This document shows positions 24,001 to 27,000 of a DNA stretch of 64,000 nt, piece by piece; position 1 is the first letter of the stretch, and the number at the start of each line of letters is the position of its first letter. The position numbers are program-made. Source of the stretch: an uncultured Chlamydiales bacterium (GTDB taxonomy: Bacteria; Chlamydiota; Chlamydiia; Chlamydiales; JAAKFR01). The stretch spans positions 1,195,757 through 1,259,756 of the forward strand of contig OY969414.1 in NCBI GenBank assembly GCA_963699155.1. The letters are read 5' to 3'.

Positions 24001-27000
24001 GATTTTTTCTACTTTCCATCTTGATAAACCGAAAGCGTGCATGTTCAACACCGACTTCTATGTAGCAGCGCTGGTCACTTATGCGTTTGACCGCTGGTCT
24101 TTCCGCTTCAGACTCTGGCACCTCTCCTCTCACATCGGTGATGAGTTTCTCATCGCCAATCCTGGTTTCGACCGTCGTAACTTGAGCGATGAAGGGGTCG
24201 ATTTCTTCGCCTCCTATCAGTGGGGCCAAGCGATCCGCCTCTATGCCGGTATCGGAGATATTTTTGACCGTGACAAGGAATTCCCCGAACACCCCTTTTA
24301 CTTGGAGTGGGGTGCTGAAATCCGGGTCTTTGGGGGTAGGGATTGTTTCAATAAACTCTACTTCCAACCCTTCTTGGCCATGCACTTCAGGGCATGGGAA
24401 GAGCACCACTACGATCTCGATCAAAACTATGCGCTGGGCGTGGAGTGGAGCAAAATTCAGGGGATTGGCCGGCGCCTGCGTCTCTTCGTCGAGTACCACA
24501 ATGGCTTCAGCAAAGAAGGACAGTTCTGTAAAGAAAGATGTAGCTACATCGCTCTGAAGACGACCTATGGCTTCTGATGATTACTCTACAATCACAAAGC
24601 CATCTGGATAAATCGGACCCGAACTGCCGATCTGCAGTTTTCCGTTGAAGAAGTCGCTGTAGATACGTAAGCCCTGTTCGGCATTTTGGATACAAAATAA
24701 ACTGTTGCTGACCCATTCCGAACCCTTGATGGTCCCTGCACGGAGATTGCATTGGAAACGATGGGTGATTTTCTCCTTCCAGTAGGCGGGATCGCCAAAA
24801 AGGATAATGGGGCCAAAGGGTCTGCTACCCACTTTGTGGCGTACCTCTTCTAGGGCAAATTCAAAATCGGTGCCGATGCCGCCCATCACAAAGATGGGAA
24901 AGTCGAGATAGAACTCCGCCTGCCTCTCGACGAGCTGATCAAGTCGATAGGTCATCTTGGCTTCGACGTAAGGATTTTGCCTCTGCTCGTTGACCACCAT
25001 GTCGGGGCGAAGTTGGAAATCGACGATATTGGCGCAGGAGAGGATTCCTACCTCTTTAGCCATTCGATTGCCCATCTCCATCGCTCCCGGCCCTCCTCCT
25101 GTCACCAGAGCGAGCGGGGTATTTTTGCCGAGTAATGGGTGATCGACATTTTTTCTTATGTCGAGCATCCCTTGCAGCAGCTTCTTCAGCTCGATTTCAA
25201 AATTGCCTTGCATCAGATTAGAGCCATAGACGCCGAAGAAGGAGGCTTTCTCGAAAACGTCGATCTTATTCAAGGGGACAAACATCCCTGAGGTCTTGCT
25301 AGGACGTTGGATATACTGAAGAATCTGCCCACTCGTCTCATCAGCCCAATAGACAGGGATTCCAAAGGTGACCAGGTCGAGCAGCATGGCGCGGTCTTCT
25401 TGCGAAAAGTAGTAGCCATGGGAGCGTGAAGGAACCTGAAAGTAGAGTCCCATCAAATTGGATTGGACATAATAAGAGAGCAGCATCCGCTTCATCAATG
25501 GCGAGGGAAAATAACGTGTAAACAGAACACCTTGGCTGGTGATCAAACCGCTTTCAATCGCTTTGAGGAATGGGTAACAGGGCTGTTGTTCGATGTAGCG
25601 CTCCACCATGAGCGATTGTCTCACTTTATGGACAATTCCTGGAAAAGGTTGCTGTGGAGGATTGCGGAGGATCCAATCATTGGCAGAGAGAGCCTTCATT
25701 TGGCTCCCTTTGACGATGAAAGTGGCTGCCCGATCTCCAAGCGGTTCTGGAGCTGTTTTGAAGGCATCGAAAATTGCTTGAGGCTTTTCTAGATAGATCT
25801 GGAGCTGATCGCGGTCGGAGAAGAAAACATGCTCACGATGTGGCTCAAGAGTATAAAACTCCAAGGGAATATCGTAGATCTCTTTATCGCTCTTGCCAAA
25901 GAGCTCATAGATATCTCCTGAAGCCTGCGTATCGGGTTGAAGAACGCTGGCAGTCGTGTGTTGATATCCTTTAGGAAGCAGATCAGTCGCCACCCTTGCG
26001 AAAGCTGTGCGGATATGGAGAGGCGCCGAACAGACAAGCAAAATGTCATCAGGAGTGACCATGCGCGGCACATTGGGAACCCATCTTTGATGCAAGCGTA
26101 AGAGGTCTCGAAGGGCCATTTTTGTTTTGAGGGCGCGGCTGATGGTGGGAAGAAACGAATGGATCGAGGACTCAAACTGCATGACTCCCTCACGCAAGCC
26201 CAAAAAGGCGACACTCTTACCATCGATCACTTCGAGTGTCAGCTGCTCACTTCCATGCAACCCTCCAAGAGAGAGCAGGGGACGTCCTTCACGGTCTGAT
26301 CGACCAAACATCCGTGTGAGATAATCAGGGCTTCTCACACGTCTGCGCTCATCGGCAGCAAAGAGTTTTCCGATAAAGGCGCCCGGCGTCAGCAAAGGGA
26401 GCATCTCGCGAGCGAGCGCACCGATCGAGGAAATTTCCACCTTCACATGGGCGCATCCTTTCTCACGGTCAAGGATAATTTCTTTGCCCACGCCATTAAG
26501 GCCCAATTGTGCCAAGAGACTTTTGAAGTTGAACATCACTTGACCAGGATCGATCTGAAACCCGACAAAAACGGGCGAGATATTTTCAATGAGCAGCTCA
26601 GCAACAGAGTGAGTCTCGCTGATGGAAGAAATTTTTTCGATTCTTCCATCAGGAGTGACGAGATCGAAATGTCCGGGATAGAGAAAGCTTGTCATGATTA
26701 TGTTAATTTATCTACTTGTTTAATAATCTAAACTGGTTAAAACTGGTAGGTTATTTTTAACTCGACTTTGAAGGGATGCACCGATGAAATATCCTCGCAG
26801 AGTGGGAGTCCATGATGGCACCTTTCATGCTGATGAAGTCACGGCATGCGCTCTCCTGATTGTCTTTAACTTCGTTGATATCGATAAAATTGTCCGCACA
26901 AGAAACAGTGCCCTACTCACAGAGTGTGAATATGTCTGTGATGTCGGAGGGGTCTACGCACCTTCAGAGAAGCTCTTTGATCACCATCAAGCGAGCTATC

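Follow-up and report, generated by a model that had tools for sequence, protein, structure and literature searches.

The 704-aa protein P0001 is the orthologue of C. trachomatis CT387. We propose that it is an NMP nucleosidase under the control of a pyrimidine-nucleotide sensor that derives from deaminases, rather than three enzymes in one chain, a scheme to which, taken whole, we give a probability of roughly one half. P0001 would act as a dimeric LOG/PpnN-type nucleosidase that splits ribonucleoside 5'-monophosphates into ribose 5-phosphate and the free base. Its N-terminal module may descend from a tandem dCTP deaminase (Dcd) of the 2r9q type, in which two barrels form one site. In free-living relatives this site carries all canonical residues and, judged from its sequence, is probably active or fully substrate-competent. 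In the chlamydial site the base-side Ser, His, Ala, and Glu remain, but the Arg is gone, as usually are the Asp and Asn; this altered site would most likely bind a pyrimidine nucleotide, e.g., dCTP or dTTP, without deaminating it. A zinc-less fold between this module and the LOG domain, in the predicted dimer interface, would relay the signal to the nucleosidase. This relay is modelled by analogy on the PpnN domains that gate for (p)ppGpp and is the least secure step.

Only tentatively do we extend this scheme to a history of the family. Here, a new class of regulated nucleosidase would use its two cytosine-nucleotide deaminase folds to sense the pyrimidine (deoxy)nucleotide pool and to govern the breakdown of NMPs. 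The protein would have begun as a single-site dCTP deaminase-LOG fusion in free-living bacteria, may stand in for Dcd/Dut in certain Verrucomicrobiota, and would have been a pure sensor since the chlamydial ancestor. Chlamydiae take nucleotides from their hosts. If true, the proposal would provide these nucleotide parasites, which lack a stringent response, with a switch for pool control, and one family would offer a contrast between enzyme and pseudoenzyme.

Table 1. Features of the P0001 locus. Coordinates are positions within the window, the whole 64,000-nt stretch of contig OY969414.1 that was analysed.
Feature	Coordinates	Strand	Basis
DUF1207 gene, convergent neighbour, synteny control	23297..24577	+	PF06727 E 4e-90; 46/70 loci carry it downstream in opposite orientation
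CT387-family gene, P0001, 704 aa	24581..26695	-	44% identical to AAC67984/CT387 over 702 residues
LOG/PpnN-type nucleosidase domain, ~residues 483-685: M539, E570, R591, GGxGTDxE612	24641..25249	-	Model and conservation; roles from PMC8234997 and 10.1101/2025.04.13.648610
Zinc-less cytidine/dCMP-deaminase fold, ~residues 300-457; F396-P397, K402, S423, S431, D434-R435 conserved	25325..25798	-	Z 8.4-8.7; predicted dimer interface
dCTP-deaminase-like barrel 2, ~residues 118-287	25835..26344	-	Five single-domain Dcd/Dcd-Dut chains match at Z 8.8-9.8
H246-T-T-A249...Q253-P254...E264-L-F-G267: counterparts of allosteric loop, motif 3, and catalytic Glu	25895..25960	-	Conservation and M. tuberculosis spacing
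dCTP-deaminase-like barrel 1, ~residues 9-117; motif-2 equivalent and motif-4-like PGxxIGKL	26345..26671	-	2r9q match over residues 5-287; border inferred
K58-S59-x-L-A-Q63-L-G65, corresponding to Dcd K-S-S-L-G-R-L-G but with Gln in place of Arg	26501..26524	-	M. tuberculosis Dcd sequence; register by eye
Gap between divergent starts, 88 bp	26696..26783	.	No consensus promoter called
MYG1-family exonuclease gene, divergent neighbour	26784..27677	+	PF03690 E 9e-51; divergent in 58/70 loci
HIT (HinT-like) hydrolase gene, overlapping the MYG1 stop	27661..27999	+	PF01230 E 1.5e-26; NF007965 E 6e-29, under its cut-off

A CT387 family beyond the chlamydiae

The genome-wide survey's note had labelled this open reading frame CT387 from indirect evidence, and direct alignment to C. 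trachomatis CT387 bears the label out (44% identity over 702 residues). According to excerpts of PMC6686042, ct387 lies divergently from the ct385(HIT)-ct386 genes in C. trachomatis, and an arrangement of this type is present at the P0001 locus. The gene boundaries and the lack of a Pfam family were reconfirmed: no Pfam family exceeds its cut-off, the top match being PF03641 (E 0.075).

The family is nearly universal in chlamydiae, as had been claimed, with a match in 136 of 150 scored genomes that is strong in 135. Genome G138 has only a weak match (E 2e-4), and all four genomes of one chlamydial family (f14) lack one. It is not confined to this group, however. Colinear relatives of ~650 aa are scattered through Planctomycetota, Verrucomicrobiota, and Chromatiaceae, and the chlamydial and other-phyla families align by hhalign with an E of 5e-47 over 622 columns (1.5e-13 for the N-terminal part). 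In the family tree a long branch sets the chlamydial copies apart from the rest. CT387 was listed among the signature proteins specific to Chlamydiales (PMC1403754, Table 1), a status that these full-length homologues rule out. Long a conserved hypothetical protein of chlamydiae, CT387 becomes a candidate enzyme with named residues, and Thermochromatium, Allochromatium, and Marichromatium provide harmless, culturable relatives for biochemistry and genetics.

Two independent structure models were compared, one of P0001 (43 sequences, pLDDT 89.6, predicted fold beginning at ~residue 10) and one of a non-chlamydial relative. Both reproduce the three folds assigned earlier. The tandem dCTP deaminase 2r9q matches residues 5–287 of the P0001 model (Z 13.2, rmsd 4.1, 227 residues aligned) and 232 residues of the non-chlamydial model (Z 14.8). 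dCMP deaminases match P0001 over ~residues 300–457 (Z 8.4–8.7), and type II LOG/YgdH proteins match its C-terminus (Z 17.8, rmsd 2.8, 192 aligned; Foldseek E 1.6e-8). To call the protein a three-fold enzyme, as the survey's note did, overstates the case: in chlamydiae the full catalytic set is found only in the LOG domain, while the Dcd-like site has an Arg→Gln substitution and the middle fold lacks zinc ligands. No published description of this three-fold architecture was found in the literature searched. Profile searches of the PDB also returned TAL effectors, which together with AvrBs3 were rejected as summed repeats with no single stretch passing alone; matches to SARM1 and CpcN (E 0.2–2) were discarded.

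The N-terminal module resembles a tandem dCTP deaminase

The N-terminal module consists of tandem barrels, as previously reported, but these are Dcd-like rather than dUTPase-like and appear to form one split site instead of two. In the non-chlamydial model the module scores Z 9.7–14.8 against Dcd structures versus mostly 7–9 against dUTPases. We place the border between the barrels near residue 117 because single Dcds match only residues 115–287; barrel 2 of the non-chlamydial model reaches Z 9.7–11.9 against single-domain Dcd chains. Homotrimeric Dcd and Dcd-dUTPase enzymes (1xs1, 2qxx, 4xjc, 1ogh) resemble barrel 2 in their fold, with Z up to 11.9, and also in the HxxA loop, the DP, and the spacing of LExxN, whereas the P0001 family has two unequal barrels per chain, which would give one site rather than three. 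The dCTP-deaminase residues are divided between the two barrels, as they are in the Agrobacterium tandem enzyme (2r9q; PF06559), with motif 2 in barrel 1 and AGxxDP and LE in barrel 2. Both barrels superpose on 2r9q at once, which indirectly supports a modelled arrangement in which the motifs of the two barrels would meet in one pocket. The P0001 family differs from 2r9q in sharing just 11–12% identity and no profile match, in showing no C-terminal YQGQ-type lid, and in carrying two further fused domains.

The residue register was set by eye on the fold match, and sequence profiles do not detect it. Aligning the module to Dcd profiles with hhalign gave E-values of 0.15 and 0.23, within the shuffled range, and four per-barrel comparisons gave 0.012–0.14, only one of which outscored all 30 shuffles. 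PDB profile searches with the module found no Dcd, a PF22769 scan touched one of 78 members (E 0.11), and P0001 itself has no sequence match to PF22769 or PF06559.

Conservation was counted in 136 chlamydial sequences, 156 non-chlamydial relatives, and 70 genome-sampled chlamydial copies from many families. Outside the chlamydiae the putative site is almost invariant: R54, S55, G61, D231, P232, and E243 occur in all 156 sequences, R59, H224, and N246 in 155, and A227 in 149. Twenty columns within residues 1–262 are conserved in at least 155 of the 156, and nine of them are Dcd-site positions. The barrel-1 motif in these relatives reads R-S-R-L-A-R-L-G, and a verrucomicrobial subgroup encodes ERS[ST]LAR[IV]GI together with HT[SA]A[VI]LLDP...LE[IV]YN in 14 of 14 copies. 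Compared with these relatives, chlamydiae keep the Ser, His, Ala, and Glu (S59 133/136, H246 132, A249 134, E264 129) as well as P254 (135), but replace the Arg with Gln (Q63 135/136) and the Asp mostly with Gln or Glu. The genome-sampled copies agree (S59, Q63, A249, and E264 69/70 each; H246 and G267 70/70), and position 253 is Q in 53, E in 12, and D in four of them. The spacing from the His to the Ala, Asp/Gln, and Pro (3, 7, and 8 residues) equals that of H112, A115, D119, and P120 in M. tuberculosis Dcd. The R115Q variant of E. coli Dcd is reportedly inactive.

These substitutions bear on whether the altered chlamydial site is still catalytic, deaminating dCTP or another cytosine nucleotide and feeding the LOG domain in a multi-enzyme protein, which we consider rather unlikely. 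In its favour, K58, S59, H246, A249, and E264 are each kept in 67–70 of the 70 genome-sampled copies. A separate Dcd is missing from 23 of the 150 chlamydial genomes (the other 127 have one with E below 1e-25); these carry the same Gln pattern where examined, and some hidden activity may persist. Nevertheless, the Gln is nearly fixed, and no Dcd-less lineage examined has reverted to Arg. In Verrucomicrobiota, a trimeric dUTPase is found in three of 25 carriers of the family versus 13 of 25 non-carriers, and a Dcd match below 1e-25 in none of 20 carriers; however, this pattern concerns the intact non-chlamydial form in related, incomplete genomes, and Dcd is rare among non-carriers as well (2/30). 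Complementarity with Dcd was seen neither in chlamydiae nor in the mixed non-chlamydial set, where 42 of 50 carriers have a PF22769 match, some of them dUTPase-only.

A zinc-less deaminase fold in the predicted dimer interface

The middle domain adopts the fold of dCMP and cytidine deaminases (7fh4, 4p9c, 2w4l; Z 8–9), and the earlier observation that it lacks the HxE and PCxxC zinc ligands is confirmed in all chlamydial and non-chlamydial members examined. The fold has YFPSPLMK in chlamydiae and YFPNxxEH in other relatives. The non-chlamydial model scores Z 7.8–9.0; in both models the scores are moderate, and many deaminase family members rank together. Zinc-less members of the fold score lower against the family's middle domain (FdhD-GDP, 4pde, Z 6.7–7.6; PurH, 1zcz, Z 6.2).

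Many predicted dimer contacts fall in this fold, the invariant K402 among them, as might be expected if the two N-terminal modules served assembly only and bound no ligand in chlamydiae. An f15 paralogue likewise keeps the LOG domain while its Dcd module has decayed. We nonetheless regard a pure scaffold as quite unlikely. On average, barrel 2 (0.61) and the middle fold (0.60) are almost as conserved as the LOG domain (0.66), and the conserved polar barrel residues sit at pocket positions. A249 corresponds to M. tuberculosis Dcd A115, which lines the base pocket (excerpts of PMC5519681). As in the paralogue, several divergent copies have lost the Dcd residues but retain the LOG Arg and Glu, and the LOG domain is therefore the core of the protein; one copy, P0141, has lost the LOG Arg.

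The LOG/PpnN-type nucleosidase domain

The model and its conserved residues make LOG-type nucleosidase activity of P0001 highly probable; the domain falls below Pfam and NCBIfam cut-offs. M539, E570, R591, and E612 (136, 130, 135, and 136 of 136 chlamydial sequences) correspond to PpnN M190, E223, R241, and E264. Excerpts of 10.1101/2025.04.13.648610 report that these four PpnN residues are required for activity and that E223 and R241 bind the 2'/3'-OH. The motif is thus intact at its catalytic Met, Arg, and Glu, in line with the survey's note. That note placed TGGGPG at 532–537, ERQ at 590–592, and GGxGTDFE at 605–612; the positions are correct, but the motifs are near- rather than fully invariant (P536 134, E590 129, T609 134, F611 132 of 136), and CT387 itself has TGGGTG. 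The exact PGGxGTxxE is not kept: GGxGTDxE is retained, preceded by M, T, A, or V and rarely by Pro. A GGGxGTxxE variant of the LOG motif is known (PMC8234997).

P0001 shares with type II LOG/YgdH proteins (9us2, 5wq3, 5zi9, 1wek) the fold (Z 17.4–17.8), TGGGPGxM, EQxxNP, the Arg, and GGxGTxxE, and its modelled dimer would likewise form through the GGxGT helix. It differs in having ~480 extra N-terminal residues that make up two folds foreign to LOGs, in lacking the Pro before GG, and in having RQ in place of RK. For the predicted dimer of residues 295–704, ipSAE was 0.84 versus 0.00 for the best of three controls, at least 91% of contacts agreed between runs, and pLDDT was at least 86. Among solved homodimers 20 of 30 attain the ipSAE mark, as does one of 23 single chains; LOG dimers have already been solved, so the score may reflect known structures that the predictor has learned.

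E. coli PpnN (6gfl, 6gfm, 9hs1-3; excerpts of PMC6717881) likewise combines an NMP nucleosidase core bearing the M/E/R/E set with accessory domains, which may have a gating role in P0001 as well. Unlike PpnN, P0001 has no DUF4478 or DUF3412 match, its accessory domains are deaminase-derived, and the counterpart of H157 is Ser, as in LOG. PpnN is gated by (p)ppGpp, whereas RelA/SpoT is absent from all five chlamydial genomes tested.

We find it quite improbable that the domain acts instead on modified (cytokinin-type) nucleotides or is a nucleotide-binding SLOG domain, possibly of a secreted effector. Its nearest solved folds are indeed type II LOGs, the Moco carrier 2iz5 scores Z 13.7, and a supplement labels CT_387 a 'potential T3SS effector' in a row without data (PMC11070183). 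Yet all four catalytic residues are kept, and colinear relatives in free-living bacteria and a fold that starts at ~residue 10 argue against the effector label.

Genomic context

The head-to-head MYG1-HIT pair described previously is present, and MYG1 is divergent from the family gene in 58 of 70 chlamydial loci fetched; a promoter scan returned two sites versus 2.2 expected. The survey's note took this pairing to indicate a multi-sensor nucleotide-salvage enzyme. We favor the sensor part of that reading, but not salvage, since the LOG/PpnN reaction breaks nucleotides down and is catabolic. The pairing lends salvage little support because it is restricted to chlamydiae (0 of 80 non-chlamydial loci) and because an unrelated DUF1207 gene is also kept adjacent (46 of 70). 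We dropped an argument that chlamydiae cannot reuse bases, with PF00156 matches, unsorted by function, in five of five genomes.

Across the 80 non-chlamydial loci (84 neighbours scanned) no common functional partner was seen, and the neighbours are housekeeping genes, e.g., ruvAC, yebC, zapD, argJ, bipA, and flagellar genes. This context, the absence of PADLOC matches among six proteins, and near-universal occurrence with stable synteny in chlamydiae make an anti-phage nucleotide-depletion protein very improbable, despite deaminase and SLOG folds known from defence systems (ThsA Z 8.0, ShosA Z 9.7) and patchy occurrence outside chlamydiae.

A stand-alone LOG is also present in genome G000 and three of four other genomes, which counts against the proposed scheme. 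An ESM Atlas search with residues 1–470 gave a single lead at 0.78, and one with the Thermochromatium tepidum relative P0362 returned LOG-labelled clusters.

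Domain architecture and proposed function

No Pfam or NCBIfam family scores above its cut-off against P0001, the product of the gene under study, and sequence searches recognise its C-terminus only, via type II LOG structures (E 7e-6); databases label family members ‘LOG family protein’ or ‘AMP nucleosidase’. The three folds proposed in the genome-wide survey's note are reproduced in a new model of P0001 (pLDDT 89.6), which matches type II LOG proteins with Z 17.8 (rmsd 2.8, 192 aligned), the tandem dCTP deaminase (Dcd) 2r9q over both barrels with Z 13.2 (rmsd 4.1, 227 aligned), single Dcds over residues 115–287 with Z 8.8–9.8, and dCMP deaminases over residues 300–457 with Z 8.4–8.7. 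The Dcd-like and deaminase folds also appear in a second model, built independently for residues 1–463 of a Thiocystis relative (78 sequences, pLDDT 83.1). Here 2r9q ranks top (Z 14.8, rmsd 3.9, 232 aligned; Foldseek E 1e-6), followed by Dcds at Z 9.7–11.9 and a chain titled dUTPase P45 at 11.2, while other dUTPases (Z 9.1 or less) fall below the Dcds; deaminases score Z 7–9. The middle-domain scores are moderate, yet ∼20 deaminase-fold members rank together. The observed gene and architecture are real and represent a variant of the LOG/PpnN kind. Our search of openly accessible papers, omics supplements apart, found none that describes this architecture.

What the analysis shows is the folds, in models, together with conservation and distribution; activity, ligand and coupling are inferred as follows: the LOG/PpnN-type core would hydrolyse NMP, the Dcd-derived pocket would bind a pyrimidine nucleotide as a sensor, and the zinc-less deaminase fold would relay the pocket's signal to the nucleosidase. 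We give this gated-nucleosidase reading a probability of roughly one half. According to PMC6717881, E. coli PpnN is likewise gated by accessory domains; the proposed difference is that the domains here are Dcd-derived and deaminase-like. Synthesis of (p)ppGpp was not found in any of five chlamydial genomes examined.

The Dcd-like module

Mycobacterium tuberculosis Dcd carries the motifs K101-S-S-L-G-R106-L-G, H112-S-T-A115-G-F-I-D119-P, L-E129-L-S-N and PGMKIGQL. In the non-chlamydial family, barrel 1 contains R-S-R-L-A-R-L-G and PGxxVGRL and barrel 2 contains H-x-x-A-x-x-L-D-P and L-E-F-x-N, with key residues each kept in 149–156 of 156 sequences; the second set is absent from barrel 1 and the first from barrel 2. 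The motifs are split likewise across the barrels of 2r9q (15 relatives compared). The two barrels together would form one site, with the motif register read by eye atop the fold match. Profile comparisons of the module with Dcd did not reach significance; their best local hits landed in the by-eye register in three of four halves. The allosteric loop of Dcd is the HVTA loop (PMC4827122), and A115 forms part of the wall of the base pocket (PMC5519681). PDB titles name E138 and H121 as mutated residues of E. coli Dcd. Reportedly, S111 and R115 of this enzyme also have assigned roles, and R115Q is inactive.

In chlamydiae, sequence comparison indicates that residues of the site are altered together. 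Among 70 copies drawn from genomes throughout the phylum, S59 (69), H246 (70), A249 (69) and E264 (69) are kept. Gln replaces the Arg in 69 (the remaining copy has a gap), the Asp position holds Gln in 53, Glu in 12 and Asp in four, and Gly takes the place of the Asn in all 70. CT387 has the same Gln, and Glu at the Asp position. A separate Dcd (E <1e-25) occurs in 127 of 150 chlamydial genomes, including the source genome, and none of the 16 aligned copies from the 23 genomes without one returns to Arg. It is possible, though rather unlikely, that the altered site is still active. That the two N-terminal modules are a scaffold only is somewhat less likely again. In the f15 tandem paralogue and several divergent copies the Dcd His or Glu is gone and both the Arg and the Glu of LOG remain; P0141 shows the opposite pattern. 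We doubt more strongly a modified-nucleotide enzyme or an effector, the effector label of CT_387 being a bare table row, and a role in phage defence is very improbable.

Trimeric dUTPase occurs in 3/25 verrucomicrobial carriers of the intact form versus 13/25 non-carriers, and Dcd in 0/20 versus 2/30; as the genomes are related to one another and in part incomplete, the rarity of both enzymes among carriers is a hint only.

The f15 paralogue (L174, G049:C4:3438-4667; L180, G070:C4:24024-25271; P0147), whose Dcd module has decayed and whose LOG motifs are intact, immediately precedes the main gene on its upstream side. Conventional dcd genes of two Chromatiaceae (G200:C1:326744-328366 and G201:C55:25026-26735) carry an interruption of ∼1.2–1.3 kb, as an intein would produce, while the frames stay open (571 and 602 aa). 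Open frames of ∼1,420 aa that contain Dcd matches in two planctomycete genomes (L137, L138) are either fusions or high-GC shadow frames.

The middle fold and LOG domain

As the survey had proposed for the chlamydial protein, the middle fold lacks zinc ligands, and it does so in both groups: HxE is not found, and the PCxxC position reads YFPSPLMK (chlamydial) or YFPNxxEH (non-chlamydial). Both groups share a PSxxxGxFxSxxD loop.

PpnN needs M190, E223, R241 and E264, with E223 and R241 holding the ribose hydroxyls (10.1101/2025.04.13.648610). The LOG domain looks active, since the counterparts M539 (136/136), E570 (130/136), R591 (135/136) and E612 (136/136) are kept in the chlamydial set. According to PMC8234997, the dimer builds LOG active sites. 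A predicted dimer of residues 295–704 scores ipSAE 0.84 versus 0.00 for the best of three controls, a mark reached by 20/30 solved homodimers and 1/23 single chains (contacts agree ≥91%, pLDDT ≥86); this pass may derive from solved LOG dimers. The predicted interface includes the middle fold (351–365, 400–411, 432–447).

Distribution

The CT387 label, previously based on length and gene position, now has a direct alignment behind it: AAC67984, named CT387 in PMC1403754, is 44% identical to P0001 across 702 residues. Near-universality in chlamydiae also holds, with matches in 136 of 150 scored genomes, 135 of them strong (one further genome lies outside the count); family f14 has none in four. 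One of the transposons recovered in PMC6686042 lies 69 nt upstream of ct387, which suggests that ct387 may be dispensable in culture. In G081 (genus g11; G081:C1:86864-88929) the gene lies in two separate frames, residues 5–317 and 315–703, either because it is truly broken or through an error in sequencing.

A search of 50%-identity representatives gave ∼20 proteins of 520–670 aa matching residues 345–690 at 25–34% identity. Seventeen were aligned and used as queries for a genome scan, which returned at least 556 confirmed matches; the best 80 are loci from Planctomycetota, Chromatiaceae, Verrucomicrobiota and Desulfatitalea. Profiles of 136 chlamydial sequences (P0001, 119 best search hits and 16 representatives >650 aa; skewed to close kin, with fragments and paralogue P0147 left out) and 156 non-chlamydial sequences (locus proteins, search hits and the 17; <560 aa and duplicates removed) can be aligned across 622 columns (E 5e-47); their N-terminal parts alone align at E 1.5e-13. 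By N-terminal profile, the gene occurs in 13/251 Planctomycetota, 21/251 Verrucomicrobiota and 18/121 Thiocystis-family genomes. In a quick 86-row tree (midpoint root, long-branch warning), a long branch with SH-aLRT 100 separates the 44 chlamydial-type rows from the others. By these profile matches the CT387 family extends beyond chlamydiae, and its 2006 listing as Chlamydiales-specific (PMC1403754, Table 1) is therefore valid for the subfamily only.

P0204, a 666-aa intermediate, is non-chlamydial overall with Gln at the Arg position as in chlamydiae, and forms the deepest non-chlamydial row, on a long branch. P0404, labelled Victivallaceae, is of chlamydial type and probably a mislabelled assembly. 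A chlamydial-type copy (P0128, KAJ9467029.1; 46% identity to P0001) is annotated on a 425-kb contig of the eukaryote Diplonema papillatum, through either gene transfer or contamination; it groups with P0132 within the chlamydial side and has the LOG residues, with the Dcd His and Glu gone.

Gene neighbourhood

Features of the window around the CT387-family gene
Feature	Position	Strand	Basis
CT387-family ORF (P0001), 704 aa	24581..26695	-	ORF call
MYG1 and HIT genes	88 bp from the start of the P0001 gene	opposite to P0001 gene	gene calls, Pfam
DUF1207 gene	converges on P0001 stop		gene calls, Pfam
Phage integrase	21945-22697		PF00589 E 4e-33
tRNA-Met	23193-23265		beside integrase
Primase-like and D5-type helicase-like ORFs	17411-20328		by eye

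Of 70 chlamydial loci, 58 show a divergent MYG1 gene, and three of the other 12 stop within 300 bp; where longer flanks were covered (40 loci), MYG1 is present in 30, each time together with HIT. PMC6686042 describes ct385 as HIT and ct386/387 as diverging. MYG1 is a 3′-5′ RNA exonuclease (PMC6582341), an activity that would supply NMPs and so fits a nucleosidase. The MYG1-HIT pairing reported by the survey stands in chlamydial loci, but is a weak pointer to salvage: DUF1207 is also kept on the other side (46/70) and neither MYG1 nor HIT occurs in 80 non-chlamydial loci (the best 80 of at least 556 matches). Inheritance of an ancestral gene order accounts for the pairing no less well than a shared function. 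In 24 Chromatiaceae loci (among L052–L108) zapD comes directly after the gene, and yebC-ruvC-ruvA often precedes it; in L097 and L098 the gene follows a pilB-type ATPase. Positions 17411-23265 of the window are probably an integrated element.
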